From the NCBI RefSeq assembly GCF_900129355.1, contig NZ_FQVL01000007.1, positions 58,106 through 122,105 of the forward strand: a stretch of DNA of 64,000 bases, in the 5' to 3' direction. Under the pieces are notes generated by a model, which worked only from the letters and a program-made list of their open reading frames with translations, made no database searches and was not told the origin of the DNA. A program made the translations under genes and the position numbers. The stretch comes from Seinonella peptonophila. GTDB lineage: Bacteria; Bacillota; Bacilli; Thermoactinomycetales; Thermoactinomycetaceae. Shown here piece by piece: positions 1 through 44,628 of this stretch; within the stretch, counting starts at the first letter, position 1; each line of letters begins with the position of its first letter.

Positions 1-139
1 TTGTTGAGTATAAATCATACCTCTGAACAATTCTCAATTAATATGATTTTTATCTTTTCTTTTCTATTTAGTCCTCCAATGTATTCTCATATTTATATCG
101 GAATATTGTTCTTAGATGCTTTTAATTATTTAGTTGCTT

Positions 140-168
140 TTGAAATGGTCGTTTACATATGGGATAAT
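140..168 (+). promoter_or_regulatory. putative sigma-A type promoter (-35 TTGAAA, 17-bp spacer, extended -10 TGgGATAAT) for the 4-gene cassette
   Basis: hexamer match and spacing read directly from the sequence; AGGAGAG RBS follows 5 nt before the ATG at 213. Confidence 0.35.
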
Positions 169-212
169 AAAACGTAACACAGAATATATGTTCTTTTGTG
201 AGGAGAGAGAAA

Positions 213-572
213 ATGGTAGGAAAGATCGTATATTTTGCAGCTACAGGGACCTCAATTGTTTGCAAGGGCAGAGTATTAAGAATGGTAGAAAATGAATGTA
301 ATATGGTACAATATTTTATACAAAATATTGATCAAATAGGAACAGTAATATTAACGCAAGAGGAGATCTATTTTTCTGAAGAAGAAGCACAAAAAAATGT
401 TTTGGATAAAGTAAGAAGACAGTACATAAAAATTGTTGAGAGTTTGTCTCCAAAAGAATTATTACAGTACTTAGTTAGTCTTCATCCGATACGTAATGAG
501 ATAGATCAAGATGTAAAAAAGACAATCGAAAGATCAATTGAGAATTATTTTGATATAGTATTAGATGATTAG
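213..572 (+). CDS. hypothetical small protein (about 120 aa), first gene of the 4-gene cassette
   Basis: ORF with AGGAGAG RBS 5 nt upstream of the ATG; tightly coupled to the next gene (19-nt gap). Confidence 0.6.
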   Translation: MVGKIVYFAATGTSIVCKGRVLRMVENECNMVQYFIQNIDQIGTVILTQEEIYFSEEEAQKNVLDKVRRQYIKIVESLSPKELLQYLVSLHPIRNEIDQDVKKTIERSIENYFDIVLDD

Positions 573-590
573 CTAAGAGGGGGATCACAA

Positions 591-1634
591 ATGTTAGATT
601 TTACAGAATTAAAGCTTGAAAATTTGGTTATACATAAAGTTGGAAACCGTATGAGGAATGAAAAATTAATTATTGCAGATTCTGTACAAGATTCAATAGA
701 CAATGATACTAAAGATGTTTTATTGAAATATTTGCTATCCCCTTTTAGGAAAAAAGAGCCAATTTATAAATTCACTCATGAAACGAATATTAAATTGAAT
801 GAAGTTTACGCTTATACTAAAGAGATTTTTGATGATCCTGACAAATTTCATGGATGCTCAGTAAATATACTAAAACATCTTTATAGTGTTTCAACTCATC
901 CGCAAATTAAAAGCGGAGAGTTTTATATGGTGTACTTTAAAGATTGTATAGTTGATAAACAGAAAGTAGATACAATAGGTATATTCAAAACGGAAAATAA
1001 GGATATCTATTTAAAAGTTAATGAAAGGTATAACGAGTTTACATTAGGGTATGAGAAAGGAATAAATATAAACAAATTAGATAAGGGTTGTTTAATCTTC
1101 AATATAGGTTCGTCGATTGGTTTTCAAGTTAGTGTTGTTGATAATTCCAATGCAAAAGAGGCGCAATATTGGAAGGATGAATTTCTGAAATTAGATTACA
1201 TACAAAATAGCGACTTCAAAACTAACCACTTCATAAGTATGTTTAATGAGTATTGTAATAATGGTCACGTTAATAATTTAGAAAAGAAAGAGAAAATAAT
1301 CATGAGAAATAAGGGGCTTCAATATCTTATGGAGAATGATCATTTTGATATTGAAGATTTTAAAACTGAAGTTATCAAAAAACAAGATGAAGTAGAAGGA
1401 TTTGATAATTTCAGAAAGAATTATTATGAAGAAGAAAGAATTTCGATTGATGATTCTTTTATAGTTACTCAGAATACAGTTCAAAAGATGAGAAAGAAAG
1501 TTGATAATAAAATAAATCTTGATGACGGAGTTGAAATTAGAATTAGTAATGCAGAACCAGAGCTAATTGAAAAAGGATATGACGAAAGGAAACAAATGTG
1601 GTTTTATAAACTTTTTTATAAAAATGAAGAATAA
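591..1634 (+). CDS. putative nucleoid-associated protein, NA37/YejK(NdpA)-like DNA-binding protein
   Basis: 347 aa; N-terminal LENLVIHKVG motif resembles the conserved N-terminus of the NA37 family; AGAGGGGG RBS; 14-nt gap to the next gene. Confidence 0.5.
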   Translation: MLDFTELKLENLVIHKVGNRMRNEKLIIADSVQDSIDNDTKDVLLKYLLSPFRKKEPIYKFTHETNIKLNEVYAYTKEIFDDPDKFHGCSVNILKHLYSVSTHPQIKSGEFYMVYFKDCIVDKQKVDTIGIFKTENKDIYLKVNERYNEFTLGYEKGININKLDKGCLIFNIGSSIGFQVSVVDNSNAKEAQYWKDEFLKLDYIQNSDFKTNHFISMFNEYCNNGHVNNLEKKEKIIMRNKGLQYLMENDHFDIEDFKTEVIKKQDEVEGFDNFRKNYYEEERISIDDSFIVTQNTVQKMRKKVDNKINLDDGVEIRISNAEPELIEKGYDERKQMWFYKLFYKNEE

Positions 1635-1648
1635 AAAGGGGATTTAAA

Positions 1649-2608
1649 ATGGCTGGAGAAGATTCCAAAAACTCAGGAGAGTTTGGAGAGAAAATTGTTG
1701 AAGGATTGCTTGAACTGATTGGTTGGAGTTCTTTCCAAAAAGGATTGGGTATAGACTGCTTTGATGGAGATTTACATAAAATCGGGAAATCTCCGAAAAC
1801 CAGACATGGAATTGACTTCTATTACTCATATGATTGTCCCTTAGTAGATTATAGACGAGAGGATATTGTAATTTCTGTTAAACATACAACTAAACCTTAT
1901 CCTCTAAAAAATCCCACTACTAAATTTAAGGAGTATTTGAAAGACCTTGCGCATGCAATAGAATGTTTCGAACAAGATATTGAATACAAAAGCAGCTTGA
2001 ATACATCAAATTATATTAAAGATGTGAATACCACTGGAGTTCTTTTCTGGTTATCCAGTAACAAAGATGAAAAGTACGGCAGTGTTATTGAAAAGATAAC
2101 AAATTTTAGACCCAATAGTAACTTGAGTTTTAATTCTATATATTTGGTGGATAATAAAAGGGCTACCTTTCTTTTAAACACAATTAACTACGCTAGAAAT
2201 TACGCAAGAAATAAATATAACACTGATGAGGTCAAATTTGTTTACCCTTCAACTGGCTATAATTCTAGTCCTCTAAATAAGGTTTCTAGTGGGGATATTT
2301 TACCTGTCCAGTATATAAACTCAACGATACTACCAGTAAGAGTTGATGTCGAAAATCAAGTTTCAATACTATTACTATTCATTAATGATTGTTTTTCTGA
2401 ACAAAGTTTAAAACGATTGGTTGGTCTATCACACAATTTGACTGAAGGATGGGCTAGTGAAAAAACGATCCTATACCCTGATTATAGTTATATCAAGCAT
2501 AATCACACAGTAAGTAAGGTTAAACAACAGTATAGAGATCAAAAATTTATTAAGGATGTTTATGTCTCTTCTTATTTGGAAGATATCGGATTGTTGGGAG
2601 CTGATTAA
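1649..2608 (+). CDS. putative Mrr-like / PD-(D/E)xK restriction-endonuclease-fold protein
   Basis: N-terminus GEFGEKIVEGLLELIGW...GIDFYY...DIVISVKH resembles the Mrr_cat core (G-x-FE...D-G-ID...x-V-K); operonic. Confidence 0.45.
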   Translation: MAGEDSKNSGEFGEKIVEGLLELIGWSSFQKGLGIDCFDGDLHKIGKSPKTRHGIDFYYSYDCPLVDYRREDIVISVKHTTKPYPLKNPTTKFKEYLKDLAHAIECFEQDIEYKSSLNTSNYIKDVNTTGVLFWLSSNKDEKYGSVIEKITNFRPNSNLSFNSIYLVDNKRATFLLNTINYARNYARNKYNTDEVKFVYPSTGYNSSPLNKVSSGDILPVQYINSTILPVRVDVENQVSILLLFINDCFSEQSLKRLVGLSHNLTEGWASEKTILYPDYSYIKHNHTVSKVKQQYRDQKFIKDVYVSSYLEDIGLLGAD

Positions 2609-3755
2609 ATTGGATAATAAAAATGTACAAGTGGAAACTATTTTACCATATGGTGAATCTATACGACCATTAATTACATCCTCGTTACTAACTAAATATG
2701 ACTTAAAACAATTTCTCTCTAATCGTGGGGTTTTTATTTGTGATGCAGAAAAAGAAGTATCAGTTCCAATAATATGTACCAGTATACTTAGTCCTGAAGA
2801 ATTTGAAGATTTAATGAACCGTCAGACTACTAAAGAGAGCAAAGTAAAAAGAGTCAATAGAAGAGTAAACTGGGACGCATCAACAAATCTATTTGATGCA
2901 TTTAAAAGATATCAGATTCCATATCAGGAAATGATTTCTGAGCGAGTTAATAATTTTAGAGTAATTCAACCTACCCGATTTGTGGCATTAAATAAAAATA
3001 ATAAGAATGAATTAGCATTAGAATATAAAATTGAAAGGGAAGATCCAACGAAGGATTGGTCGACTTTAAAAAGCATACATGAAGCAAGGATACTATTGAA
3101 AAAAACAGATAAAAATATTCTTGAAATAAGTATGGAATCTACAGCAAACGAAACAAAAGAACTAAATGATAAAATATTGAATCGTGTAATTTCCTATTTA
3201 AAAGATCAGTGTTTTATTGATAAGAATGAACGTGTTCAAAAGATTATTTTTGGTGATTTTACAAATCAAGGGAGAATTGAATTTTTATTAAGTTTGCATA
3301 GTGATGATCCTATAGAGGTGTTTACTTTTAAAGAAATCACCAATATAGAATTAAATGTAGATTCTAAAGGGGAAATTCCTGATGATATTGAATGGATGAA
3401 AAATCGAGTTAAAAACTTAATAATTAAGGGTCAAGGTCTACATGATACGATGTTTTTGAAGAATCCAAACTACCACGATTGTTTAGTAGTTACAAGTATC
3501 GAAGCTGATTATGAGTATGATTATTCAGGATCAAAAGGGATATGTAAGATAGATTACGGCTTTCAAATGAAATCCAAGTCATTTACTAAGCAATCAGAAT
3601 TTGAATTCAAGATCTTGAAAGTTAATCCTAATTCACAGGAAAACAAAAAAAAGGTTGAAAAGGAACTACGGAATAGATTCGATGATTTTAAATCCAAAAA
3701 ATATATGTTGTACAAAGAGAATGAAAAGAAGGAGCGTAATCTACCCCAAACATAG
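2556..3755 (+). CDS. hypothetical protein (about 380-399 aa), fourth cassette gene; alternative TTG start at 2610 with GGAG RBS
   Basis: long ORF, K/E-rich, overlapping or abutting the upstream gene; no recognisable motif. Confidence 0.55.
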   Translation: MFMSLLIWKISDCWELIKLDNKNVQVETILPYGESIRPLITSSLLTKYDLKQFLSNRGVFICDAEKEVSVPIICTSILSPEEFEDLMNRQTTKESKVKRVNRRVNWDASTNLFDAFKRYQIPYQEMISERVNNFRVIQPTRFVALNKNNKNELALEYKIEREDPTKDWSTLKSIHEARILLKKTDKNILEISMESTANETKELNDKILNRVISYLKDQCFIDKNERVQKIIFGDFTNQGRIEFLLSLHSDDPIEVFTFKEITNIELNVDSKGEIPDDIEWMKNRVKNLIIKGQGLHDTMFLKNPNYHDCLVVTSIEADYEYDYSGSKGICKIDYGFQMKSKSFTKQSEFEFKILKVNPNSQENKKKVEKELRNRFDDFKSKKYMLYKENEKKERNLPQT

Positions 3756-3920
3756 AATGCTGTTGTAGAGATGGTGTGTCACTAAGTGTGTCAACTCAAC
3801 CAGCCCAACTAAATCCCAAACAAACTCAAATTAAATCCAAACTCTCCAACCCCTTAATTCAACACGCCTCAACGGACTTCCCCGCACCTCATCAAAACTC
3901 ACTCAACACCACCCTGAACT

Positions 3921-3967
3921 CACTCGTAATGATGGGGTCGCAGGTTCAAATCCTGTTGTCAGCACCA
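3921..3967 (+). repeat. tRNA 3'-half-like att site copy 1 (T-arm CGCAGGTTCAAATCCTGTTGTCAGCACCA)
   Basis: canonical T-stem and T-loop plus an ACCA 3' end but no D-arm or 5' acceptor strand; repeated at 5694-5742. Confidence 0.5.
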
Positions 3968-4546
3968 GCTAAACCCTTGTGAATCAGGGGTTTTTGTGTT
4001 TTATTGTTTACTAGTTTCAATTACAAAACTTTGAGATCTGGATTGCTAGCAACCAATCGTGAAACAATTGATTATTGAAATTGAGGGTTATGGTTTACAA
4101 GCATTGCTCCATGGAAAATGTCAAGATAGTCATGAATTACGGAAGAAGTTTTTTCAAACATTACGAAACTTACATGGTAACGAGGATTTTCTTCACGTCT
4201 TTTGTAGGGATCATCAGTTTGAAGAAGTTCCTTACTCAGGCTTAATTGAGGCTGATTTTCTGCTCGATGTGGATGTACTACGTGTTTTTAAAAATGAAGG
4301 AGATCATTGGAAGATGATATGATCCAATCATGACCACCACACATAAAAAGGGTGGTCATGATTGTGTTTGATCAAATAATTCACCCATTTATACCAAGAG
4401 GCTTGCAGTTATTACATTGCAATGGAGTAGGGGTAAAAATAAAAACTGAACCACTAAAGAAATGTTTAGGGTTCAGCACACTCACTTTGAATTAACAGAT
4501 TGGTTCCTTATATCACCTCACATTGATTGAAAGTTAACGAATAAAC

Positions 4547-4690
4547 GCTTATTCTACTTGGCTAAGTATTCTTTAATACTGATACGTTGTGCTGGGCGCA
4601 TTTCAATTTCATCCAGTTCTTTTTGTGTAAAAAAACGCAGCTGAGTTGATTCAAAGCTTACTGTAAGCTCACCGCTTGCGGATACATCAC
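4547..4690 (-). pseudogene. Nudix hydrolase C-terminal fragment (copy i of triplicated module)
   Basis: minus-strand translation [39 protein letters not shown] is homologous to the C-terminus of the 8494-8874 ORF. Confidence 0.45.
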
Positions 4691-4825
4691 AAGAACGTGA
4701 AGGATTTAAATCTAAGAGAATGGACATGTCCAGAATGTAACAAGCATCATGATCGAGACATGAACGCAGCCATTAACATCTTGCATGAAGGTATGAGATT
4801 AGTCGCCGTGGGGCTCACGGTCTGA
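4691..4825 (+). pseudogene. IS200/IS605-family TnpB (OrfB) C-terminal fragment
   Basis: translation ...[34 protein letters not shown] carries the TnpB zinc-finger/RuvC-III signature; no N-terminal part upstream. Confidence 0.55.
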
Positions 4826-4890
4826 GCTTGGTCAATTTCTCTAGATTGCGAGAGATTACCCAAGAATCTCCCGCGTTTACGCATGGGGAG
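4826..4890 (+). mobile_element. IS605-family right-end / omega-RNA-like remnant after the TnpB fragment
   Basis: GC-rich structured stretch (GCTTGGTCAATTTCTCTAGATTGCGAGAGATTACCCAAGAATCTCCCGCG...) at the position where TnpB elements carry their RE RNA. Confidence 0.3.
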
Positions 4891-4945
4891 TGGTCAAGGA
4901 GATTAATTAAGGTATAATACACTTGAAAGAGTATGGATCGAAACG

Positions 4946-5245
4946 GTGGTGGGGGTTGTGTTAGTAAATAATTTGAATGACAGTCTAAAGAAAATGAAGC
5001 TTTTTTTAAGAGATTCATATGGGGTGAAGAAAATAGGCTATTTTGGTTCCTATGTACGAGGTGAACAGACGGAAAAAAGTGATATTGATTTATTGGTTGA
5101 GTTTTCTAAGCCAATTGGATTGCGCTTTGTTGAGCTTAAAGAACATTTGGAAAGAGAATTGGGTAAAAATGTTGATTTAGTCACGACTAAAGCATTAAAA
5201 CCTCAATTACGAGAAGCTATTTTAAATGAGGTTATTTATCTATGA
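4946..5245 (+). CDS. nucleotidyltransferase (MNT-type) antitoxin of a HepT/MNT pair
   Basis: GYFGSYVRGEQTEKSDIDLLV nucleotidyltransferase motif; 4-nt ATGA overlap with the downstream hepT. Confidence 0.7.
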   Translation: MVGVVLVNNLNDSLKKMKLFLRDSYGVKKIGYFGSYVRGEQTEKSDIDLLVEFSKPIGLRFVELKEHLERELGKNVDLVTTKALKPQLREAILNEVIYL

Positions 5246-5589
5246 AAAGAAATTTTGTTCTTTTTTTAGAAGATATAACCAATTGTATGAATAAAATCGA
5301 AAGCTATATAACTGATTTAAGTTATGAATAATTTGAAGAGAATCAATTAGTCATTGATGCAGTTGTCCGTAATCTTGAAGTGATCGGAGAGGCGTCAAAG
5401 TATATACCAGAAGAGATTAGGCAAAAATATCCGCAGGTTCCATGGAAGAGCATGATTGGTCTAAGAAACATTCTGATACACGAATACTTTGGCATTGATG
5501 AGCAAATTATTTGGGAAATTGTATCTCAAGATTTCAGAGAAACAAAACCACTGATCGAAAATATTTTAGTAAAGGTAAAAAATGATTGA
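5242..5589 (+). pseudogene. hepT: HepT (DUF86) toxin interrupted by an in-frame TAA at 5329-5331
   Basis: MKRNFVLFLEDITNCMNKIESYITDLSYE*FEENQLVIDAVVRNLEVIGEASKYIPEE...RNILIHEYF stays in one frame across the TAA; HEPN Rx4-6H-like motif RNILIHEY in the distal part. Confidence 0.6.
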
Positions 5590-5693
5590 ATTTTTAAATA
5601 TGTATTATTTTTGTTGAACCGTCCATTGCTATTTCAAAGATAATTGGATCACAATATTCAATGTCAGGATAATTGTAGTATTTTGTGTGTCAA

Positions 5694-5742
5694 CTCACTC
5701 GTAACGATGGGGTCACAGGTTCAAATCCTGTTGTCAGCACCA
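5694..5742 (+). repeat. tRNA 3'-half-like att site copy 2
   Basis: near-identical to 3921-3967; begins a roughly 320-bp segment (5692-6015) about 95% identical to 3905-4235. Confidence 0.5.
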
Positions 5743-5944
5743 GCCTACCCTTGTATAGCAAGTATTTTTTTGTGTTTTATTGATTGCTATTTTCAAATAC
5801 AAAACTTTGAGATCTGGATTAACTAGCAACCAATCGTGACACAATTGATTATTGAAATTGAGGGTTATGGTTTACAAGCATTGCTCCATGGAAAATGTCA
5901 AGATAGTCATGAATTATGTAAGAAGTTTTTTCAAACATTACGAA

Positions 5945-6215
5945 CTTGCATGGTAACGAGGATTTTCTTCACGTCTTTTTTAGGGATCATCAGTTTTGAA
6001 CGTACAAAGGCGCCTCCTTTAGGAGCAATCTCAATCAAATTCTTCGTTTGAAGTCGAAGTAATGCCGTTCGAATGGTCGTGCGACTTACATTCATTTCTT
6101 CAGCTAATATACGCTCTGCTGGAAGGCGTTGTCCAGCAGCAAATACTCCTTGGATAATATCAGCTTCAATTTTATTTACTACCTCGTCGAGTTTTTGATT
6201 GTTGTGTCATCGTAT
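5945..6215 (-). pseudogene. YtrA-type GntR-family regulator, copy ii, frameshifted near the start
   Basis: minus-strand VVNKIEADIIQGVFAAGQRLPAERILAEEMNVSRTTIRTALLRLQTKNLIEIAPKGGAFVRSK... (GntR HTH); the ATG-led frame MTQQSKTRRGSK* is out of frame with the HTH. Confidence 0.5.
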
Positions 6216-6227
6216 TACCACACATTG

Positions 6228-6400
6228 AACGTAAGTTATCGGATAAACGCTTTTTCTGCTTGGGCAAAATAATCTTTAATACGGATACGTTGTGCTGGAT
6301 GCATATCGACTTCAGCCAGTTCACTTTGTGTAAAAAAACGCAGTTGAGTGGATTCTGAACTTACGGATAGCTCGCCGCCAATAATCATGCTATTAAGGAA
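6228..6400 (-). pseudogene. Nudix hydrolase C-terminal fragment (copy ii)
   Basis: GGELSVSSESTQLRFFTQSELAEVDMHPAQRIRIKDYFAQAEKAFIR* nearly identical to the C-terminus of 8494-8874. Confidence 0.45.
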
Positions 6401-6807
6401 TCAAAGGGGATCGTTGAGAGGAACACCGAATCTTGTACCAAATACTATCCGAACGTAAACAGCAGCTAACGAGAGTTTAATAGGCAAAAGTTCCATACAT
6501 CACGTTTATATGAGTTTTAATGCTTCTTTGATGAGCTTCAAGAGTGGTAATCTCTAACGTTTGTTTTGCAGTAGTTTTGAAATTTATCGTACATCTTGTT
6601 TACTGAAATTAGGTGCAAAATGCCTGCTTTTTATTATAATTAATGGTGGTTTATGCGTTTTGCATAAGTTGAAGCCAAGTGTGCGCAGGGAGCGGGACTA
6701 GACGTATGTGGTGAATACGAGGTGACAGATTGAGTTGCCGGAAGGATAAGCCTCGTAGCTTTGAGCAATAAAAGCGGTGAAATGAACATCATAGAGGAGG
6801 CGACAGT

Positions 6808-8124
6808 GTGGCCGTTTTCCACGAGTTAGAAGTGACCGAATTTCCAGATCGGCGTGGACAGACGTATTTTGTGCAGACGGGGCAGGATTACCAATTCGGG
6901 GATCCAGAACAACACACGAAGTTTTTAGAAGGATGCGAAAAGTATTTGGCGGTTCTCAACGAGGAGAACCGAGAAGTAGGCAAAAAAGAAGTTACCAATG
7001 GCCCGATTCATACGATTACTAACGAGCAAACCAATGCGCATGGGGAGACATTGTTGCAGACGAAACAGACAACATATGTGCATTTCCGTGCCTATGTCGA
7101 TTCACAAGATCCGAAATTATCCAAGGAGAAGCGCGCCAAGCTTCAAGAATGTTTTGGTGAAATAGGTGGTGTACCACCGTGCCCTGTAGGCAGCCCGATG
7201 ACGATGATCATTCCGAAGCAAGAGCCTCCGTCGCATGAATCAAAAGTGACAAAAGTGCGCGACAAACTGCCAGCGATCGTTGCACAGGCGATCGATTTGT
7301 CAACGGCGAAGTTGAACGAGCAGATAACACAGCGGCGTGGCAGACAACGAGCAGTGTTTGGCATGGTGAGCCAAAAGAGTAATTTCGCCGGTGCGGGCAC
7401 GATACAAGGGTTTGGAGGTGCTCTCAATGAAAACACCGCGCTGTTGCCGGTAGAGACGCAGCTAAAGCTGGCGGAGTTACAAGAGCGTGGCTTCGTGTTG
7501 AACGAGCTTGGGGAAGATGCACGTGTGTGGACGCAAGATCGGGTGATTGATTCATATTTGGAGCAACAGCTGGCTCTGGTGGAGAGCGAGCGTGAATATT
7601 TGGGTCCGATCAAAGATCCGCGCGGCAACTATTACATCTTGAGTGCTGATCATGTGGACAAAACGCTGGAAGAATTGCAAGACTTGCAAGAGCAACAGCG
7701 GGCAGTGGGAAAGACAAAGTTTGATCAGCTGATCGATATGCCACTCGACGGTCGAGCGGCGAGTTTGCAGATGGCGCGCAACGGACAAACCCCGCGCCTT
7801 TACGTCGGACCTGGCCTCGATCGCTTACGAGAGCGAATGCTGGATCAGAAAATGGATCGTGTCATGCAACTTAATGAGTTTATTGGCCAAACACGCGGAA
7901 ATTTTGCCAACGTGCAAGAAAAAGTGAAATCCAATTGGCAGCAGAGCCGCATCGCTGCGATGGAATCTGGGGAATCCCAGCGCAAAGCAGCCTTTTTGGC
8001 CACAGGTCAGCTCGGGAAGCAACTATTGCAGTTGGGTGCGAAGAAGGCTAGAGCGAAGATTAGATTTACACCAAAAGATAAAATTGATCAAGTTGTTGGA
8101 AAATCTAGAGGAAGAGAATTTTAA
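6808..8124 (+). CDS. hypothetical protein (438 aa) on a roughly 52% GC island; GTG start with AGAGGAGG RBS
   Basis: long ORF with strong RBS and a terminator at 8132-8165; codon composition is distinct from the flanking roughly 33% GC DNA. Confidence 0.6.
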   Translation: MAVFHELEVTEFPDRRGQTYFVQTGQDYQFGDPEQHTKFLEGCEKYLAVLNEENREVGKKEVTNGPIHTITNEQTNAHGETLLQTKQTTYVHFRAYVDSQDPKLSKEKRAKLQECFGEIGGVPPCPVGSPMTMIIPKQEPPSHESKVTKVRDKLPAIVAQAIDLSTAKLNEQITQRRGRQRAVFGMVSQKSNFAGAGTIQGFGGALNENTALLPVETQLKLAELQERGFVLNELGEDARVWTQDRVIDSYLEQQLALVESEREYLGPIKDPRGNYYILSADHVDKTLEELQDLQEQQRAVGKTKFDQLIDMPLDGRAASLQMARNGQTPRLYVGPGLDRLRERMLDQKMDRVMQLNEFIGQTRGNFANVQEKVKSNWQQSRIAAMESGESQRKAAFLATGQLGKQLLQLGAKKARAKIRFTPKDKIDQVVGKSRGREF

Positions 8125-8131
8125 AATAAAT

Positions 8132-8165
8132 AAAGCCGTTTCTTGATTAGGAATCGGCTTTTTCT
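8132..8165 (+). terminator. rho-independent terminator (AAGCCG...CGGCTT + TTTT)
   Basis: hairpin plus T-run read directly from the sequence. Confidence 0.45.
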
Positions 8166-8212
8166 AAATTTCCTTATTTGCACCTGTTAACTGAAATTCA
8201 TCCCCAAATTTA

Positions 8213-8446
8213 TCAACCAGTTGATAACCAGCGAGAGAGACGCTTGATGTCACTAATGACTAAAATGGTTGATGCGTCTCCTCTAGGAATCATCTCAATC
8301 AAATTCTTCGCTTGCAGTCGAAGTAATGCCGTTCGAATGGTCGCGCGACTTACATTCATTTCTTCAGCTAATATACGTACTGCTGGAAGTCGCTGTCCAG
8401 CATTATATAACCTTTGGATCATATCCAATTTTATCGGATATCTCAT
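8213..8446 (-). pseudogene. YtrA-type GntR regulator, copy iii (HTH frame runs from an internal Met; upstream ATG-led frame MTQQSKIDEISDKIGYDPKVI* is shifted)
   Basis: LYNAGQRLPAVRILAEEMNVSRATIRTALLRLQAKNLIE GntR HTH; frameshift between the N-terminal leader and the HTH. Confidence 0.45.
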
Positions 8447-8493
8447 CGATTTTTGATTGTTGTGTCATCGTATCACCACACATTGAACGTAAG

Positions 8494-8874
8494 TTATCGG
8501 ATAAACGCTTTTTCTGCTTGGGCAAAATAATCTTTAATACGGATACGTTGTGCTGGGTGTATATCGACTTCAGCCAGTTCATTTTGTGTAAAAAAACACA
8601 GTTGAGTGGATTCGGAACTTACGGATAGCTCTCCGCCAGTAATCATGCAGGCAAAACAGATTGAGAACTGTTGTCGAACTTCTCCATCAGAATAGGCAAT
8701 GATATGGTTTAGATCAGTATAGATGCCGACACAACCTGTTACTTGGACATTCAATCCACTTTCTTCGTTCACTTCAAGTATGATTGTATTTTCAATCGAC
8801 TCTTCTAACTTGTGATTCGTGTGTCGGCATATACGGCGATCGATGACTTTTACGAAGGATAAATAAGTTAACAC
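8494..8874 (-). pseudogene. Nudix-like hydrolase, N-terminally truncated with a degenerate Nudix box
   Basis: LEESIENTIILEVNEESGL resembles the Nudix box (GX5EX7REUXEEXGU) but has GG->HT and R->L; stop codon immediately upstream of the first Met. Confidence 0.4.
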
Positions 8875-9212
8875 TCAACCATGGAAAATAATTCCGATTT
8901 ATTGTATATTCTTTGAATTTACAATAAGAAATATAAGACGCGTCCAAGTGATAAAATAATACAAAAAAATATTATTTACATACTCCTTATATATCAAAAA
9001 AGTGACTAATAACATTTTATTATATAATAATAGCATTAAATTATAGATTTATTAAAAATTTAATTTATATACTGAATATTGATATTTATAAATCTGACCT
9101 TTATTATGAGGAAGTCATCGTCGCAACACCTATTTTTCTCCCTTGAAAGAATGGGAGAAATCCAAGATCAGATATCTTGGAGCGACCTGTAGAAGCAGAC
9201 AGAGGAAGGAAC

Positions 9213-10010
9213 ATGAAGCGTTTTACTCTCATGGAGATGTTCCCGGCGTTCTCCAATCCTCAGGAGCTGGATCACCGTCAGATCGAGCTGCTCCAGCTCT
9301 GCGCCCAGATCGGTGTTCCGTTCCCTGCCGAGCGGAACAAGTCATACGGCACCTGGTGGCACTCTCTCCACGAGATCGGTCACTGGGCTGTCAAGCCTGA
9401 CTGGTACATCCAGTACTCGTCGTACCTGCTGGACGACCTCGCGACGACCTGGGGTGTTCTCAAGATCCCTGCCGGCACGGTGAAAGGGATCGACTACCCG
9501 ATCATGCTTCCCAAGATCGGGCGGTACGTCGGGGGCAACGATGTCATCCCGGAGATCGGCATGTACAACAAGACCGACCCGACCCCGGGAGAACACGAAA
9601 CCCGCGTCTGGGCTCTCCAGTACCTTGAACTGAAGGGCTGGAATCACCCGTTCGACGACAACACCAAAAAGATCACGACGGGAGACGAGTTCTTCCACAA
9701 GCCGGCTTCGGCCAGGGTCTGGGCTACGCCTCAGATCAACGATCCGGAAATCTGCACCAAGATGGCATGGTGGGGACTGAACGTCCCTGAAGGTCAGTTC
9801 CGCCCGGCCGAGGACGAGGAGTTCGTCCTGCCATATCCCACTCCTGTGAACCACCAGGAGATGGTAGCCAACATGGACGCCATCACGTCCCACTACGGTG
9901 GGAAGGTGCTGAAGTCCGACGAGAGGTCTTACTGGCTTGCCTACCTCAGGAGGAGGTGGCCCGAGAAGGACCTCGTGAAGAGGTACTTGCGGATCGCTAA
10001 GGCCGCCTAG
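9213..10010 (+). CDS. hypothetical HEXXH-motif protein (putative zinc hydrolase) on a roughly 60% GC island
   Basis: GAGGAAGGA RBS; WWHSLHEIGHWAVKPD contains HExxH...D; very high GC3; terminator follows. Confidence 0.55.
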   Translation: MKRFTLMEMFPAFSNPQELDHRQIELLQLCAQIGVPFPAERNKSYGTWWHSLHEIGHWAVKPDWYIQYSSYLLDDLATTWGVLKIPAGTVKGIDYPIMLPKIGRYVGGNDVIPEIGMYNKTDPTPGEHETRVWALQYLELKGWNHPFDDNTKKITTGDEFFHKPASARVWATPQINDPEICTKMAWWGLNVPEGQFRPAEDEEFVLPYPTPVNHQEMVANMDAITSHYGGKVLKSDERSYWLAYLRRRWPEKDLVKRYLRIAKAA

Positions 10011-18588: not shown

Positions 18589-18948
18589 TCAGTGCTAGTA
18601 TATGTAGACTTCTATTTTATATTTGTCTATTTTTATTTACAAAGATATGCTAAGTAGATGAACAAATCAGAAAGGAAATGTCTAGTAGAGAAAACAAGAA
18701 AACGGATCACTTTTGAATCAAATGGTTGATCTCTCAACCTAATAGCTTTGAACTACTCTGTCGGTATAAAGTATCCTAAGTTCAGTGGATACGTCTTTTC
18801 AGACCTATTTAGACGTTTTTTGTTTATCTAACTGATTCTATTCATCAAGGAAATGCAAATATGATAAATAATCATTTGAAATTTCGTTTTCCAATTTATA
18901 TTTGATTTATAATATCTATTGAATAAAAAAATGGAGAGGGTGAATGAG

Positions 18949-19950
18949 ATGAAATCGGGTTATAAACCATTAAAAGGCAGAATTTCATTAGTAAGTTCAT
19001 TGCCAAATATAAGAGAAGATGAGGCGGCGCGGCGGGAATGGATCAGCCCAGAACAGGATGCGGCATTAAGCAAACTTTGGGCACAGATGATGGAGAAAAA
19101 CCCCAATAAATACCGTGATCGTGATTCGAAAACAAAAGCCCCTTTAAAGCTATACTATCATCAGATTGGGCAACCGGATGTAGAAGGAAATATCAATGTT
19201 GAGATTGGGGAAATGTCACCCAAAGATTTTTATCCATTAGATTGGCTAGAAACAAATCAAATGAAAAAAGATGAATATAATTTATCCCCAGAGGAATGGA
19301 AATTATTAGAAAGCATTGGCCAAAAGGGTCTATTAAATCCATCTTCTATATTGAGAACGAATGATGGTAAGGATAACTATGGTCTAATGGGGAAAAATAC
19401 AGCTGTTGAAAATGAATTTCAATGTATCGGAGCGGCATTGCAGCCCATTCCAGGTACAGACCCGCCTCAATTTAATTTGGCAGAAAATGTGCGGGATGGG
19501 GTCAAAAGAAAAACGGCTCTTGATGATAAACAAATAGGAGAAGTTCGAGCAATTGGGGTCTCGAATTGGAGAAAATCTGATAAAGGACCCACTCATACAA
19601 CGGTTATATATGAAACACAATTGCCAAATAAATCAGCTGATCAGCTACGACAACATGTAGAAGAACATAGCCCACAACTTTCAACTACAATATCTATAGA
19701 TCCAAAAGATAGAAAAGAATCGAGAGAATGGATCAAACAGCTTCCAAAAACAGGACAAAGATCTTACTTGGTAGGGGTTGTCAAGGCTAGATATCTTGAA
19801 AAGATGAAGGCTTCCGTCAGAGCAACAGTGCCAAGAATACAGCAAATATTTAAACCAAAAAAAATATCGAATCAGGTAAAGAGTTTCTTTAGTTCAGACT
19901 TACATCGTGGTTTATCGACCCCTAGCAAGCCAGATGGACGTGATCGTTAA
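18949..19950 (+). CDS. hypothetical protein (about 333 aa); start chosen at the ATG with a GGAGAGGGTG RBS, upstream alternatives 18919/18931
   Basis: long ORF, no recognisable motif. Confidence 0.5.
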   Translation: MKSGYKPLKGRISLVSSLPNIREDEAARREWISPEQDAALSKLWAQMMEKNPNKYRDRDSKTKAPLKLYYHQIGQPDVEGNINVEIGEMSPKDFYPLDWLETNQMKKDEYNLSPEEWKLLESIGQKGLLNPSSILRTNDGKDNYGLMGKNTAVENEFQCIGAALQPIPGTDPPQFNLAENVRDGVKRKTALDDKQIGEVRAIGVSNWRKSDKGPTHTTVIYETQLPNKSADQLRQHVEEHSPQLSTTISIDPKDRKESREWIKQLPKTGQRSYLVGVVKARYLEKMKASVRATVPRIQQIFKPKKISNQVKSFFSSDLHRGLSTPSKPDGRDR

Positions 19951-20557: not shown

Positions 20558-21462
20558 CGCGATGCCTTCATTGACCGCTTTATCATACCGTTCTAACTCT
20601 TCCGACCCTTCATATCGCTCACGATTTACAAGCTGCTGATCCTCAATTTGTACGATTTTTCAACCTTCTATATGAATGTATTTACGAGCTTCCATTAATG
20701 CTGATTTTTGACTATTTGAACGTACCCAGCAATTGATAAATGCACCTTCTCACTCATCTGATTCGGGATTGTCTGGGGATGGTACTGCTTCAACCATAAT
20801 AAGTTGAACTACTACCACCTACAGAGGTGGTAGGTTCCTGCGAACACCAGACCAACGTCCAGTTATCTTAGCAGGCTCTACCCGCCGTCCCAGCGGTGAA
20901 AACAAAGTATGCTCTGCTATGCTCCCTACTTTCGCTTGGTTTTCGCAACTTCGGTGAGCTGGGTGGTTGAAGATTTTACGTTACTGACCCTTTCCAGCAA
21001 CAACCCCATATCTTCAGTTTTCAAAGAGCTACAACTATTCTAACAAAAAAAGTGGTTCTAAGCATTCCCACAAAAGGGATACCGAACCACGTCCCATTCA
21101 CCTCACCGCTTGTAGAAGCGGGAGTACTCTTGGACGAATTTGGATAGATAGTCTTCATTGTATGAATCACTCCTCTATATTTTATTATATTAGGAGTAGA
21201 TTGATATTTGAAAGGAACATAAAACAATATTATTGGTTAAATTCAATTCATTTATAAATATATTAATTTTATGTTATGTGATTTGCGGGAATGATGGTAA
21301 AAGGTAACTAGCGATTATACTATGATGAATTTACTGCTCAAAAGACTCTTTCTTATTCGTACATAGCTCATCCAATTGCTTTATAATCCTCTTCAATTCA
21401 TGTTATGAATAGGATAAAGATGAATTGAAAAAAAAGTGTTCGTTTCACTAGAGAAAGGTTGG

Positions 21463-24060
21463 ATGGTGTTGACAGGGTTAAATTATCATGTTGTCATTCC
21501 ATGGCGGGATCATCATGGGCAAGGAGAACAGACATCGATTACTGCATTGGATTATCTGAAACTGCTCGCAAAAAAAGATAATGGGTATGCTTTGTTAGCG
21601 GTTTGCTTTGGGGTGATACAACAATTACATTTAAATATAGGGAGTTCCGAACTCTTCAACTACTTTTTAAAACGAGCACTGCTTAATGAAGATGTATGTT
21701 TTCTTGAAGCTTGGCAATTGGGACGAATCATAGCTGGAAAACAACTTCGAGCAAATGATTTTTTTACAGATCAGTCAAACGAAAGAACAGGTAAAACAAT
21801 ACCAATCTATAACAACCCATTACAAAATCCAACAAAAGCCTACTTTACTCGTGAATCTGACGAGGTCATCGAAGAGCGACTCCATTCATTTTTTTATCAT
21901 TTTACCTGTGCTTTTATAGAAAATCGACGAGATGAGGAAATAGTATTACAACTAGGTAGTGAACTAAATTTGCACAAACAATTGGTCGATTATAAGCCAC
22001 GAGGTGATTCTCTTGTGTTTGCAGAAGCGAGTATTGTGCATTTTTTTCCTGAAGTACTTTCTAAAGTGATGGTAATGGAGGCTAAAAATCCATGGGAGAT
22101 TTTTTATCAGGGAGGAAAAACAGGTCCTGATCAGTCCAATCCTCTATTTTCTAAAATCTCTCAAGCAGGGAGACACTTTTTTAATCCAAGTCCACAAGAT
22201 ATTTATTCTGTGTTTAACCCCTTTTCAGCAAACGATTTCCCACAGTTTGCACCTGTTTCAGACATTTCATCCTTTTTTAGGGATGCCGTGAGAAAAAGGC
22301 AATTATCATCTATCAGATCCTATTTTCGTGGTTATGATGATCGTGAGCAAGGGCGTACGAGTGAAGTGGGGATGTATGACACTACTTATTTTACCTCTAC
22401 GAACGATTGGAGAGAATTTTACAAAATTGGTTACGAACAGAGACAAAAAGAATTAGTCTTACAAGCTTGTTATCCTGTACTTGATAAAATTATTCAGGCA
22501 AATCGAGGAGATCTGTTGTACCTATTTTTTAGAGGAGGAAGAAATGAAGCAAGTACGTCTAGTGAGTTGTCTGATCAGACGCTAAAAACCATTTATGAAG
22601 CAGGTAAACAATTTTTTAATCGAGACGAAGCACTGCTCCATGAAGAGTTTATGAATGCTAGTCAATCACTAGCACTATCTGAAGAAGCAAGCTCCCCCGA
22701 TATACACCCTGATTTTGCTCAAGCAGTAAAAGATCAGAATTTGGAAGCCATCGAAGCTTTTTATCGAGGATATGAGGTAAATGATAAAACAGGTGGACAA
22801 GAAAAGATTTTGAGAAGTTTAATTCCTGTTGATAAAAATCTAGAAGTATCTCCAGAGATTTTGGCTATGTTCGCTTTAGGATACACATTTGGAGGACGTG
22901 TGAATAAAAGGTTACGACCAAATATTATTCAACGATTATCTACAAACGCACAGCCAGTAGTAGATGAATGGTTTAGGATTCCGACATTAAAAAAAAGGGA
23001 AAAGCTGAATTTTGATGTACCCTTAAACATTGTGCAAGATAAAAGGGGGATCAAAGTCTTTGGTCAAAAAACACAAATGACCACTGGGGAGTATATGAAA
23101 GCACTCATTGCAAATAACAATGGATATGGATTATTAGCTGTTTGTTTTGGTGTTATGGATGAATTAGGGATCGGATCTCTCATCACTTCAGAATTATATA
23201 ACCGGGCTAAGTATAAAATGGACGAATGCTTTAAAGAATGCTTTTTAGTAGGTAAAAAGCTAGCTGGAAATACTGATTATGACGAATATTTATTTACAAA
23301 TGAAACGGAGATTAGAGAGGGGAAAACGATCCCTTTTCAAAAGAGACTAGATGTTCCAACAGATTTAAATAGTAATGTTGAATCATATTTCGAAGGTCTA
23401 ATCAGTTCTTTTATCAAAAGGTTTATGCAATTTTTTGTAGTTACTAAAGAAGATTATGCAAACGCAAATATTATTAATGGTGATAACAGTGCATTTCAGA
23501 TGGCAACACTACAGGGTCATCTTTTTGCTAAACAAGCAAGTCATAATCTGCATCTGATTCCAGACATTTTAGAGCAAATAGTTGAAAAAGATAGGGCAGA
23601 TCTACTAGTGGTCTTCTTAAAGGGTGGTAGAACCGATGATCCACTCGATTTTCGTATTTTAGGAGATACGAACTTATCAAAAATCTATGACGAGGGGAAT
23701 CGCTTTTTTCATTCAAAAGGTACAGTTTCCACAACGAAAATAACAGTAACGGAAATGTCTCATCAATCGACCGATTCTCAAATTCCACTTGAATTTCAAG
23801 AAGCCGTAAAACAAAATCAAATAGCTGCAATTCGGGACTTTTTTCGAGGGTTTAATGATCGTTATCAGAAGCACGAAAAAGAGGGCACTGAATCTTTGAA
23901 GAAAAATTTATATAATTTGGGTTATGAATTTGCAGATAAACAGCTTTTTCCAAAACAAGAGTCCAAAGTAGCAATAGAAAGAAGACAGCTCCACGAAGAG
24001 CCCTATGTTCCTTCAGATGTAATCAGACCGTCATCACGTGAAGCGACTAAAGGAAAATAA
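21463..24060 (+). CDS. large hypothetical protein (about 865 aa) with an internal tandem duplication; upstream GTG alternative at 21436
   Basis: GAAAGG RBS before ATG 21463; two roughly 400-aa halves share blocks (NGYxLLAVCFGVxxxL..., REGKTIP, DLLYLFFRGGRN/DLLVVFLKGGRT, AVKxQNLxAIxxFYRGY x3). Confidence 0.7.
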   Translation: MVLTGLNYHVVIPWRDHHGQGEQTSITALDYLKLLAKKDNGYALLAVCFGVIQQLHLNIGSSELFNYFLKRALLNEDVCFLEAWQLGRIIAGKQLRANDFFTDQSNERTGKTIPIYNNPLQNPTKAYFTRESDEVIEERLHSFFYHFTCAFIENRRDEEIVLQLGSELNLHKQLVDYKPRGDSLVFAEASIVHFFPEVLSKVMVMEAKNPWEIFYQGGKTGPDQSNPLFSKISQAGRHFFNPSPQDIYSVFNPFSANDFPQFAPVSDISSFFRDAVRKRQLSSIRSYFRGYDDREQGRTSEVGMYDTTYFTSTNDWREFYKIGYEQRQKELVLQACYPVLDKIIQANRGDLLYLFFRGGRNEASTSSELSDQTLKTIYEAGKQFFNRDEALLHEEFMNASQSLALSEEASSPDIHPDFAQAVKDQNLEAIEAFYRGYEVNDKTGGQEKILRSLIPVDKNLEVSPEILAMFALGYTFGGRVNKRLRPNIIQRLSTNAQPVVDEWFRIPTLKKREKLNFDVPLNIVQDKRGIKVFGQKTQMTTGEYMKALIANNNGYGLLAVCFGVMDELGIGSLITSELYNRAKYKMDECFKECFLVGKKLAGNTDYDEYLFTNETEIREGKTIPFQKRLDVPTDLNSNVESYFEGLISSFIKRFMQFFVVTKEDYANANIINGDNSAFQMATLQGHLFAKQASHNLHLIPDILEQIVEKDRADLLVVFLKGGRTDDPLDFRILGDTNLSKIYDEGNRFFHSKGTVSTTKITVTEMSHQSTDSQIPLEFQEAVKQNQIAAIRDFFRGFNDRYQKHEKEGTESLKKNLYNLGYEFADKQLFPKQESKVAIERRQLHEEPYVPSDVIRPSSREATKGK

Positions 24061-24241
24061 TAAAATAATCATCTAATATTATGTTATATTTGAATAAGTC
24101 CAATAAGCCCATCTTACAACCAACTGTTCAGGTTGTAATCCAGGTCCTGGAGCGATCCATTCACAACAAAGAATTGGAAACTGGTCGGTTTTTCTGGGAC
24201 ATGAGATGGGTTGGTTCGTTCAATGCTCTAGGAGGAGCAAC

Positions 24242-25465
24242 ATGCAATTCGGTAAGGAGATGGGATTACCTCATCCCAACATCAAACAGCGTCTTCGTGC
24301 AATGAAGACACGCCACCGCTGGATGAACCGAAAGGTTTTTCTGGCCGACACAGTAGCCATGCTGCTTGCCTTCCACGGTTCCTGGATGGCTCAGGGAGTC
24401 AACCGATTCCTCGAGCAGTCTTTGGGAGGAGGATGGCTCCCGCTGATCGTACTCGCGTACTACCTTTTCGGAGAGCTTGCAACCGTTCTCAGTGGGGGCA
24501 TTATCAACTGGGTCAACGCCAAGCGATTCGCAGTTGCCATGATGAGCGTCATGGCCGGTAGCGTCATCATCATCGCAAACGCGACCACACCACAGTGGCT
24601 GCTGGCTGGGTACAGCATCTACACAGCGTCACATTTCCTCGGGTTCACAGCAATTGCGACGATCTGTCGCATGAGCCTTAACTCAGATCCCAATCTTCAT
24701 CGACGAGGTGTCTCCTTCTACGGAGGCTATTGCTACCTCGGCGGAGCGGGAGCCGGATATGCCATCAATCTGGTACTGTCTGATGACATGTACCGGTGGA
24801 ACCTGATCGCCGTTACCACTGCACTAATCGGCATCTTCCTGCTGCTCTTCGTCAAGCTCCCTCAGGAGATGAATGAAGAGGTTACAAGCAATCGGAAGTC
24901 GTTCACGCCCCTCGGCTTCTGGCATCAGCTGTTCGACACTCGGGCAATCAGGGTGATTTGGCCCTATGCCTGTATTATCGCAGGCAACACCATTCTGATT
25001 AACTACCTTCAGTTCTCACTGGAGGCAGGAGCAGATTGGGTACTCACCCTATACTACTTAACCTGTGCTTTTGCAGGGGCGGTACCTGTACGAACCGCAG
25101 AGCGGAAGAATGACTGGGTCGTTTCGCTCTTGAGCTACGTTGCTGCTGGTGGAAGTATGGGCTGCTTCTTCATCGGCGGACTCACACTTAGTGTCGTGGG
25201 CGTAGTCCTACTCGGTCTGGCGATCGGGATGGGAAGGGTAAGTGCTTCCCAGCTCGGTTACATGGAGGCAGGGCTCACCGGACGAGGTGTTGCTGCATTC
25301 TATGAATCAGGCATCAAGATCGGACAGATCGTCGGCGCGTTCCTAGGTCTGCTTCGTCCGTTCATCGGTGATAATCTGATCTGGATTTCACCGCTTCCAT
25401 TGCTCATACTCGCCATCGTCTATACGGCGTGGCAGAAGAAGCAAAGATTTACTGCTGAAAAGTAG
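24242..25465 (+). CDS. MFS-type membrane transporter on a roughly 55% GC island
   Basis: AGGAGG RBS; about 12 hydrophobic segments; GC composition distinct from neighbours. Confidence 0.6.
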   Translation: MQFGKEMGLPHPNIKQRLRAMKTRHRWMNRKVFLADTVAMLLAFHGSWMAQGVNRFLEQSLGGGWLPLIVLAYYLFGELATVLSGGIINWVNAKRFAVAMMSVMAGSVIIIANATTPQWLLAGYSIYTASHFLGFTAIATICRMSLNSDPNLHRRGVSFYGGYCYLGGAGAGYAINLVLSDDMYRWNLIAVTTALIGIFLLLFVKLPQEMNEEVTSNRKSFTPLGFWHQLFDTRAIRVIWPYACIIAGNTILINYLQFSLEAGADWVLTLYYLTCAFAGAVPVRTAERKNDWVVSLLSYVAAGGSMGCFFIGGLTLSVVGVVLLGLAIGMGRVSASQLGYMEAGLTGRGVAAFYESGIKIGQIVGAFLGLLRPFIGDNLIWISPLPLLILAIVYTAWQKKQRFTAEK

Positions 25466-25802: not shown

Positions 25803-26870
25803 CTATTGACTCTTATCTCTATCATTTTCTTTTCTTCGCTCGAGAATGCTACGTGCAAAATCCAGATCAGGATAACGATCAAAATTTAATTTACCAAATT
25901 TCCACTCATTTGCTTGAGTTACTGTGTCTATACCAAGGATTTGATTTGTTGCGTGATGAAGTAATGGCGGATTACGATGACCTTCAACCAATTCACAAAA
26001 TTTATCCCAGGTTTCAAATGGAGCTGTGGAAAGGTATTCTTTCCTATATTTCGAATTACGAGTTCTAAACAGTTTGCCCAAAAGGGATCTTCTATGTTTT
26101 GTTTCAGTATCCTTTATTTCATTTATTTCTTTGAGAATAAATTTTGCTTCTAAAGATACAGCATTCTCACATTCACGATAACAATTTTCTAGGTTTTCTG
26201 GACTAGATCTCCCTTCAGAGTAAGGATTTGAAATATTTTCATGAAGTCCATGAAAACTTTCTATTATTGGATAATACTTTTGATCAATAAATGATGAAAG
26301 GGAATCTGAATTTACAAGAAACTTAGAAACGCAGGCCATAAATGGGAAAATATCTTGTTCACTCTCATAATCAAAGGAATGGGAGGTTACCTTTTTTTTG
26401 ATTGCCGATGCAAGATTTTTCCAATTCATATGCCAATCGGGATTTTCTGCACCTAGCCCACTAGCAAGTTTCTTATGCGCTTGCATAATTATTGGCTTAA
26501 AGGTATCTAAAAATTCATTAGAATGGGGCTTGCGGGCTTCTAAGTCTGTGAAAATCTGTTGCCAGTCATTTTGTTGCATAATCTCCAATTCAGCTTCATA
26601 ATCATCGTGGTCAAAGTTTCCATAATTGGTTCCATATAGTTTAGTCAATGCTGTACTGAGTATCTCTAATTGATAGGGTTGTAGGAATGAGGGATCTTTA
26701 CTAAATTGAACAATCCAATCAACCACTTGTTCATAATCAGCTACAGCTTGTTCGAACTGTTCGGAAGATAACAAATGAGGGCGTTTTTTTAACAACTTGT
26801 CTAACAAATCATAGTTTATCCTTGGGGTTTTAGGGTCACTATCATTCATTTCAAATGGCAAAAAAGTCAC
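25803..26870 (-). CDS. hypothetical protein (355 aa)
   Basis: long ORF in AT-rich DNA, acidic/aromatic-rich, no recognisable motif. Confidence 0.5.
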   Translation of the reverse strand: MTFLPFEMNDSDPKTPRINYDLLDKLLKKRPHLLSSEQFEQAVADYEQVVDWIVQFSKDPSFLQPYQLEILSTALTKLYGTNYGNFDHDDYEAELEIMQQNDWQQIFTDLEARKPHSNEFLDTFKPIIMQAHKKLASGLGAENPDWHMNWKNLASAIKKKVTSHSFDYESEQDIFPFMACVSKFLVNSDSLSSFIDQKYYPIIESFHGLHENISNPYSEGRSSPENLENCYRECENAVSLEAKFILKEINEIKDTETKHRRSLLGKLFRTRNSKYRKEYLSTAPFETWDKFCELVEGHRNPPLLHHATNQILGIDTVTQANEWKFGKLNFDRYPDLDFARSILERRKENDRDKSQ

Positions 26871-44624: not shown

Positions 44625-44628
44625 ATAT

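Follow-up and report, generated by a model that had tools for sequence, protein, structure and literature searches.

The closest described relative of the gene cassette analysed here is GAPS4, an abortive antiphage system that was first found in Vibrio GMT islands and has been tested for Vibrio parahaemolyticus MAVP-R and Escherichia coli RiKo 2299/09 (Mahata et al., bioRxiv 10.1101/2023.03.28.534373; 10.1101/2025.09.07.674715). The cassette lies at the left edge of a stretch of 64,000 nucleotides from Seinonella peptonophila (RefSeq assembly GCF_900129355.1, contig NZ_FQVL01000007.1, positions 58,106 to 122,105 of the forward strand), called the window below, in which open reading frame (ORF) calling gave four tightly packed ORFs on the same strand, g1 to g4. 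The pair g3 and g4 was assigned to GAPS4, and g2 to the NA37 family of YejK-type nucleoid-associated proteins (NAPs). The cassette is probably a three-gene, NAP-coupled variant of GAPS4, in which NA37 would link the GapS4ab DNase to the condition of the nucleoid, with the lineage-specific g1 added to it.

Both genes of GAPS4 are required for its function, and its published catalytic motif is HGxD-SxK, of which the Asp is essential. GapS4a and GapS4b form a 2:2 heterotetramer, as known for Vibrio from size-exclusion chromatography with multi-angle light scattering and AlphaFold3 and as predicted for E. coli. Upon DNA breaks, which may come from phage, nalidixic acid or DNase toxins of the type VI secretion system, the complex degrades phage and host DNA non-selectively. 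The system carries an autoimmunity cost with an expression-dependent trade-off, the cells being sensitised to nalidixic acid and DNase toxins, and it is attenuated by nuclease-dead, DNA-binding homing endonucleases, presumably through masking of the breaks. The text of the GAPS4 preprints (bioRxiv 10.1101/2023.03.28.534373; 10.1101/2025.09.07.674715) makes no mention of NA37, YejK or the nucleoid. The validated RiKo pair (WP_028132563.1 and WP_028132564.1) was located in a hotspot of a P2-like prophage, flanked by its genes for tail-fibre assembly and the tail sheath (locus L119, NZ_CP063518.1 2891056-2893129), and GAPS4 was detectable by DNA similarity in only 4 of 5,426 complete E. coli genomes.

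The second relative is PANGU, in which YejK-like NAPs bind long chromosomal DNA (at least 400 bp, not 200 bp); when phage nucleases degrade the genome, the NAP is released, binds the co-encoded effector and activates it (Li et al., bioRxiv 10.64898/2026.04.06.716658). The systems are bicistronic, with the toxSAS GRel (type I) or the transmembrane protein Pag2B (type II) as effector. The NAP is required for defence, neither component is toxic alone, and toxicity is seen only upon co-expression of a DNA-binding-dead NAP with its effector. Ten clusters of NAP operons, defined by gaps below 40 bp, were catalogued in the same study, and in Clusters 3 and 4, present across phyla and untested, the NAP is described as followed or preceded by 'two conserved hypothetical proteins'. 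DefenseFinder v1.2.2 was used in that study (bioRxiv 10.64898/2026.04.06.716658). GAPS4 is never mentioned in the PANGU text. This DefenseFinder version is presumably older than the GAPS4 models. DefensePredictor likewise validated a YejK-domain-containing defence unit from E. coli (PMC13092281).

Identity of the cassette genes

The features of the cassette are as follows.

140..168, + strand: sigma-70-like promoter candidate upstream of g1, TTGAAA-17-GATAAT with a TG extended -10 (consensus match)
213..572, + strand: g1, orphan of 119 aa, the ORF being open from a GTG at 198 (198-572)
591..1634, + strand: g2, YejK/NdpA-type NAP of the NA37 family, 347 aa (Pfam, fold match)
1649..2608, + strand: g3, GapS4a, PD-(D/E)xK DNase subunit, 319 aa (NCBIfam, Pfam, BLASTP)
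2556..3755, + strand: g4, GapS4b, non-catalytic partner subunit (NCBIfam, Pfam, BLASTP)

The g3 protein matched the NCBIfam model NF047933 (antiphage_GapS4a) over its full length with 363.3 bits against a cut-off of 270, carries the precomputed Pfam label PF26115 (PDDEXK_GAPS4) and is 33 % identical to the validated E. coli protein GAPS4a-RiKo, WP_028132563.1 (BLASTP, E=2e-41), its D56 being aligned to the catalytic D49 of the latter. The catalytic motif HGxD-SxK is intact in g3 (H53-G54-I55-D56 ... S76-V77-K78). Among 54 GapS4a homologues G54, S76 and K78 are invariant and D56 is kept in at least 90 %, and among the 14 closest homologues H53 and D56 are invariant; the alignment of all 54 sequences was too diverse for scanning loci, for which the 14-sequence subset worked. 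The g4 protein matched NF047934 (antiphage_GapS4b) from residue 30 onwards with 379 bits (cut-off 300), carries the Pfam label PF26110 (GAPS4b_N) and is 24 % identical to GAPS4b-RiKo, WP_028132564.1 (BLASTP, E=2e-25). GapS4b follows GapS4a in all loci with downstream sequence. By homology, g3 and g4 are the published two-gene GAPS4 system, and the cassette is not an undescribed system.

The local Pfam copy gave no match of GAPS4 models for g3 or g4, in contrast to the newer precomputed Pfam labels. PADLOC-DB v2.0.0 gave zero matches for g1 to g4, which is uninformative because this database (2023) is older than the GAPS4 preprint version of 2024. GapS4a was not found in the phage GenBank collection. 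The Mrr family was tried for g3 and rejected: Mrr_cat (PF04471) was not found by hmmscan against Pfam at E<=1, where only a weak VF530 match appeared, and the motif is the non-canonical HGxD-SxK, so that the superfamily was right and the family wrong.

The initial annotation, which was made from the letters of the DNA alone, had proposed an undescribed four-gene defence or abortive-infection system. It was right in seeing a cassette of the defence or abortive-infection type on acquired DNA, and the families of g2 and g3 confirm the pairing of an NA37/YejK-like DNA-binding protein with a PD-(D/E)xK nuclease. The claim of novelty fell, as genes 3 and 4 are published as GAPS4 and named in NCBIfam, and a sensor function of YejK-like NAPs in defence was described in 2026 (PANGU, DefensePredictor). 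The GIDF...SVK pattern noted in gene 3 proved to be the HGxD-SxK core of a PD-(D/E)xK enzyme, though not of an Mrr_cat domain, and gene 4, thought to be without a recognisable domain, is GapS4b by NF047934 and PF26110.

The assignment of gene 2 to NA37/YejK/NdpA, for which a check against PF04245 had been suggested, was borne out by that Pfam model (E=1.9e-33, profile positions 1-316 of 325) and by the predicted fold. The AlphaFold2 model of g2, built from 29 homologues with a mean predicted local distance difference test score (pLDDT) of 84.8, had E. coli YejK (9be2) as its sole significant match in the PDB (Foldseek, E=1.8e-9, prob 1.0). Sequence searches of the PDB with g2 and with the NA37 profile gave no match, YejK being found by the fold search only. 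The closest NA37 homologue (P0002, 46 % identity) is without a GAPS4 link; 52 nt downstream of it, in GCA_016841825.1 (L002), begins the gene of a 289-aa protein without a Pfam family (L002:9130-9999).

The tight packing of the four genes was confirmed, the last one overlapping or abutting its neighbour. As first reported, 14 nt separate g2 from g3, and the distance from g1 to g2 is 18 nt and not 19. Translation of g4 may start at 2556, with an ATG at 2562 or with a TTG at 2610, a single base past the g3 stop, and the g3/g4 junction is accordingly an overlap of 47-53 nt or, with the TTG, abutting. The single upstream promoter was recovered as the candidate at 140-168, which scored 10/12 and is joint-best in region 1-4300; it is solely a match to the consensus, and that region holds no excess of promoter-like sites (16 observed against 22 expected). 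The GC content of the cassette is 27-33 % against 39.5 % for the window, and the coding-like pattern GC1>GC2~GC3 is common to g1 to g4. The g2 and g3 proteins are 100 % identical to SAMN05444392_10765 and SAMN05444392_10766. Beyond the window edge, the native contig has a divergent gene for a 76-aa HTH_17 protein, situated some 320 bp upstream of g1.

The remaining gene, g1, probably is real and lineage-specific. Translation probably begins with the ATG at 213, preceded by the Shine-Dalgarno sequence AGGAGAG at 200-206, and an ORF of at least 119 codons arose in 0 of 20,000 shuffles; together with the cassette-like composition these features argue for a real gene, which is likely to be expressed from a common promoter with g2 to g4. 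It was correctly described as being without a recognisable domain, nothing having been above thresholds in Pfam, NCBIfam, PADLOC and PHROGs. An exhaustive phmmer search of 1.84e9 representatives returned g1 itself as the only real match, tblastn did not find it in any related locus fetched, and the single-sequence AlphaFold2 model (pLDDT 59.5) had no fold match, the Foldseek hits being meaningless. Weak hints of DUF7326 and DUF3601 were rejected, as they are below the cut-offs and the small ORFs that precede NA37 elsewhere are not related.

A novel four-gene system with an essential small protein g1, as the initial annotation read the locus, would be in accordance with the evidence that g1 is a gene, with its 18-nt distance to g2 and with its position between the only good promoter match and g2. 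The small ORFs found 5' of NA37 elsewhere are, however, unrelated to g1 and to each other (one is HTH_17, one DUF1413, and the rest are seemingly spurious), g1 has no homologue and is absent from all related loci examined, and genes 3 and 4 are a published system. A four-gene system was therefore judged most improbable, and by its distribution g1 is placed outside the conserved module.

NA37 beside GAPS4 and its possible role

The occurrence of NA37 beside GAPS4 was analysed from both sides. A scan of species-representative genomes anchored on GapS4a gave 26 loci, 23 of them with enough upstream sequence. NA37 stands just upstream of GapS4a in 18 of the 23, ending about 12-26 nt before it or, in L029, overlapping its start, and these NA37-first loci belong to Bacilli, Clostridia, Erysipelotrichales, Muribaculaceae and Azonexus. 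The five others have unrelated upstream genes where these are identifiable, namely DUF4435 (L008) and aconitase (L010). Eight further GapS4a look-ups revealed NA37 in five, with the order permuted to GapS4a-GapS4b-NA37; it follows GapS4b immediately in four, and in L122 an insertion sequence (IS) intervenes, with a distance of about 1.7 kb. The contexts of the permuted order include a CTnDOT-like integrative and conjugative element of Elizabethkingia, a metagenome-assembled genome of Bacteroidia where the trio lies beside OLD/UvrD, and the neighbourhood of a type IIG restriction-modification system. Of the 35 loci anchored on GapS4a, 23 in total have NA37 next to GapS4ab; broadly, NA37 comes first in Bacillota and last in Bacteroidota. 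GAPS4 is two-gene on the enterobacterial plasmids and in both types of E. coli locus, and this holds for each of the seven gammaproteobacterial loci that were sampled (E. coli, Ewingella, Pantoea, Teredinibacter, Marithrix, Parabeggiatoa).

From the side of NA37, a metagenome sample of 80 loci was examined. GAPS4 is the largest neighbour cluster in it (11/80), and in six of these loci a fused GapS4a-b ORF precedes NA37. In the fused loci (L048, L061, L075, L079, L083, L084) one ORF of about 885 aa has GapS4a-like and GapS4b-like regions and is directly followed by NA37, which shows that the fused form retains its NAP partner. The other neighbours are diverse (TerC, MFS, SpoIIM, RhuM, DS1_2-antiphage-like and unknown proteins), and the loci with TerC, MFS and SpoIIM suggest standalone NAPs. 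On an IMG/VR contig, an integrative element, NA37-GapS4a-GapS4b is flanked by an integrase/ImmA module and a Rep_trans gene and lies beside McrBC.

Several of the sampled loci showed further features. In L122 (4934-7339) GapS4b is seemingly split by an IS with HTH_Tnp_1 and rve transposase genes, with NA37 downstream, and the whole resembles an inactivated three-gene locus. A gene of the RhuM family follows the GapS4a-GapS4b-NA37 trio after 3 nt in several loci (L061:3846-4832, L072:5127-6212, L114:3228-4226), and in Elizabethkingia a Hypoth_Ymh protein is the next gene (L031:8124-8903); these may be further accessory genes or cargo of defence islands. A protein of about 380 aa, weakly like NCBIfam DS1_2_antiphage, lies directly upstream of NA37 and overlaps it at L057:1174-2313 and L107:3844-5007, and this may be another NAP-coupled defence pairing.

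Taken together, 30 non-redundant triplets were collected, drawn from Bacillota, Bacteroidota, one betaproteobacterium (Azonexus) and metagenome contigs without assignment. The gaps are at most 26 nt, or the genes overlap, in 29 of the 30; the exception is L100, where NA37 stands about 160 nt after the GapS4b match. The distances of NA37 correlated with those of GapS4a and GapS4b with Mantel r=0.51 and 0.57, respectively (p<=0.0005), and those of GapS4a and GapS4b with each other with r=0.96. In both trees each of the two gene orders has a clade of its own, and the congruence is at the clade level. On the GapS4a tree of 39 loci the two-gene loci occupy three or more positions, including one within the NA37-first clade, which indicates that NA37 has been gained or lost more than once. 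The flanking genes differ at every locus and the trio alone is conserved. The expectation that the four genes would co-occur in other genomes thus held for g2 to g4 and failed for g1.

It was considered very unlikely that NA37 is a mere neighbour, that is, a protein that belongs to the nucleoid or plasmid chromatin of the mobile element, or to some other function, next to an ordinary two-gene GAPS4. The 69 of 80 sampled NA37-clade relatives that are not beside GAPS4, some of them beside genes of housekeeping type (TerC, MFS, SpoIIM), are what such a protein would give, as are P0002 and the functional two-gene systems. The tight adjacency across phyla, the two gene orders, the fused forms, the clade-level congruence and the conservation of the trio amid varying flanks all argue against chance proximity.

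Starting from what was observed, namely the families of g2 to g4, the motif, the linkage and the two gene orders, the following working is proposed for the three-gene variant. By homology to the characterised systems the effector would be a 2:2 complex of GapS4a and GapS4b with PD-(D/E)xK sites, which upon DNA breaks would degrade phage and host DNA non-selectively, and the infected cell would die. NA37, co-transcribed and co-inherited with this effector, would by analogy with PANGU sit on intact chromosomal DNA. Fragmentation of the genome by phage nucleases would free NA37 or change its state, and NA37 would then license the GapS4ab DNase, activation thereby being a feed-forward commitment.

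Several points weigh against this variant. NA37 is missing from 12 of the 35 sampled loci, including the clade L008-L010, which is nested among NA37-first loci, and its co-evolution with GapS4a and GapS4b (r about 0.5) is far looser than that of the two subunits with each other. The two-gene GAPS4 of Vibrio and of E. coli RiKo works without a co-encoded NA37, so that NA37 is not universally required in cis. The contact of NA37 with GapS4ab, and the activation that would follow from it, we infer, and the expression and activity of the Seinonella cassette are putative. A DNA binder could restrain GAPS4 as easily as activate it, since catalytically dead, DNA-binding homing endonucleases attenuate the system. 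The identity of Clusters 3 and 4 of PANGU with GAPS4 plus NA37 is, by their description, only probable.

Restraint within the same three-gene unit was weighed as a serious rival, though a rather unlikely one. NA37 would then be a brake that coats DNA or masks spontaneous breaks, or sequesters GapS4ab, thereby raising the activation threshold and limiting autoimmunity. The expression-dependent autoimmunity of GAPS4, with its sensitisation to nalidixic acid and DNase toxins, would give such a brake a use, the effect of the nuclease-dead homing endonucleases would be its model, and a gene added to two-gene systems that are self-sufficient in sensing may well be a modulator. However, the only characterised NAP-coupled systems need the NAP for defence, the NAP activating the effector; neither PANGU component is toxic alone, toxicity appearing only with a DNA-binding-dead NAP and the effector; and a pure antitoxin-like brake is expected to co-evolve tightly, which is not in accordance with r of only about 0.5. 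If the system has three genes, activation in the manner of PANGU is, by that analogy, more likely than a brake.

A broader and doubtful idea is that YejK-type NAPs might be the general DNA-integrity sensor of GAPS4, with the abundant chromosomal YejK of the host serving the gammaproteobacterial two-gene loci in trans. The tested Vibrio GAPS4 is likewise two-gene, as described in the literature. Bacillota and Bacteroidota would be without a suitable chromosomal YejK, and the system would there carry its own NA37. If this were true, GAPS4 and PANGU would merge into one sensing principle, and the housekeeping YejK would gain its first clear physiological role in immunity.

Integration scar and neighbouring genes

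Downstream of the cassette the following feature was found.

3917-3969, + strand: tRNA 3'-end-like fragment, ...GGTTCAAATCCTGTTGTCAGCACCA, followed by a terminator-like hairpin and T-tract at 3971-4003

The 53-nt tRNA-3'-end-like repeat occurs at 3917-3969 and again, as a direct repeat of 96 % identity, at 5692-5744, both copies lying inside duplicated blocks of about 300 nt. No tRNA or other RNA gene was called in 1-10,000 by ARAGORN or Rfam, and the tRNA-like sequences are therefore fragments; an intact tRNA for the fragment was not found in the window, whose only tRNAs are two adjacent tRNA-Met (CAT) genes at 44549-44705. The tRNA-fragment scar with repeats like attachment (att) sites, noted in the first reading of the locus, was recovered, and the fragment and hairpin (3917..4003) probably mark the remains of an att site and the point where the transcription unit ends. 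The nearby toxin-antitoxin pair and TnpB debris were likewise found, as an MNT/HepT pair and a C-terminal TnpB fragment. The ORF of the MNT nucleotidyltransferase (4946-5245) is intact, and after a gap of 134 nt the HepT-like ORF (5380-5589) has 69 aa covering profile positions 37-120; this toxin gene may be truncated.

Repeat blocks follow one another in series (3917-4220/5692-5996; 4560-4675/6263-6378/8521-8636; 6010-6161/8274-8425) and carry the tRNA 3'-end fragment, the 3' end of a NUDIX gene in three copies and GntR-type HTH fragments. Another NUDIX gene lies upstream in the native contig (L001:104-496). The blocks look like the outcome of repeated integration and duplication at one target site. 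Patches of higher GC content (0.50-0.53, window 0.395) at 6808-8124, 9177-10010 and 24206-25465, with ORFs of 438, 277 and 419 aa without Pfam match, are probably foreign DNA of other origin than the AT-rich GAPS4 cassette. Large ORFs without a Pfam family at E<=1e-5 are located at 21436-24060 (+ strand, 874 aa), 18919-19950 (+ strand, 343 aa) and 25803-26870 (- strand, 355 aa).

Comparison with described systems

Among the PD-(D/E)xK enzymes, Mrr shares the superfamily core with the GAPS4 nuclease, which differs in needing GapS4b and in giving no sign of dependence on DNA modification. Hachiman (HamAB) and Shedu, named as analogues in both preprints, are likewise PD-(D/E)xK defence nucleases activated by DNA damage or DNA ends. 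Their sensors are unrelated, being the helicase HamB in Hachiman and the N-terminal domains in Shedu, and the PADLOC scan detected no sequence relation of g1 to g4 to either system. E. coli YejK (NdpA, 9be2) has the Pfam family and the full-length fold in common with g2, the structurally aligned sequences being only 14 % identical. The E. coli protein is a housekeeping NAP encoded on the chromosome, whereas g2 is borne on an island in an operon with a nuclease.

With PANGU the cassette shares a YejK-like NAP gene less than 40 bp from the gene of a toxic effector (g2 to g3), and a predicted logic of abortive infection upon genome damage. The description of Clusters 3 and 4 fits both gene orders found here. 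The cassette differs in its effector, which by homology is a two-subunit DNase able to sense breaks alone, and Clusters 3 and 4 were not named GAPS4 in the PANGU text. As its partners are GapS4a and GapS4b, with no toxSAS or transmembrane effector, it falls outside the definition of PANGU types I and II; it is at most PANGU-like and plausibly belongs to Cluster 3.

GAPS4 itself is the nearest system: g3 and g4 pass its family models, the HGxD-SxK motif is kept, the genes stand in a-then-b tandem, and the cassette lies on acquired DNA. For the window this means an annotated, known defence system and no new class. It differs in that g3 and g4 share only 33 % and 24 % identity with the tested E. 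coli pair, and in the third gene, as the tested systems are two-gene and the RiKo locus has no adjacent NA37, whereas NA37 is in the operon here and in about two-thirds of the sampled relatives. The explicit recognition of NA37 as a recurrent third GAPS4 gene is new, being stated in the text of neither paper. It makes NA37 a concrete candidate for the sensor or regulator of GAPS4, and a three-gene subtype is worth recognising in DefenseFinder, PADLOC and NCBIfam. The linkage of NA37 with GapS4ab in most sampled non-gammaproteobacterial loci thereby connects the work on GAPS4 with that on PANGU.

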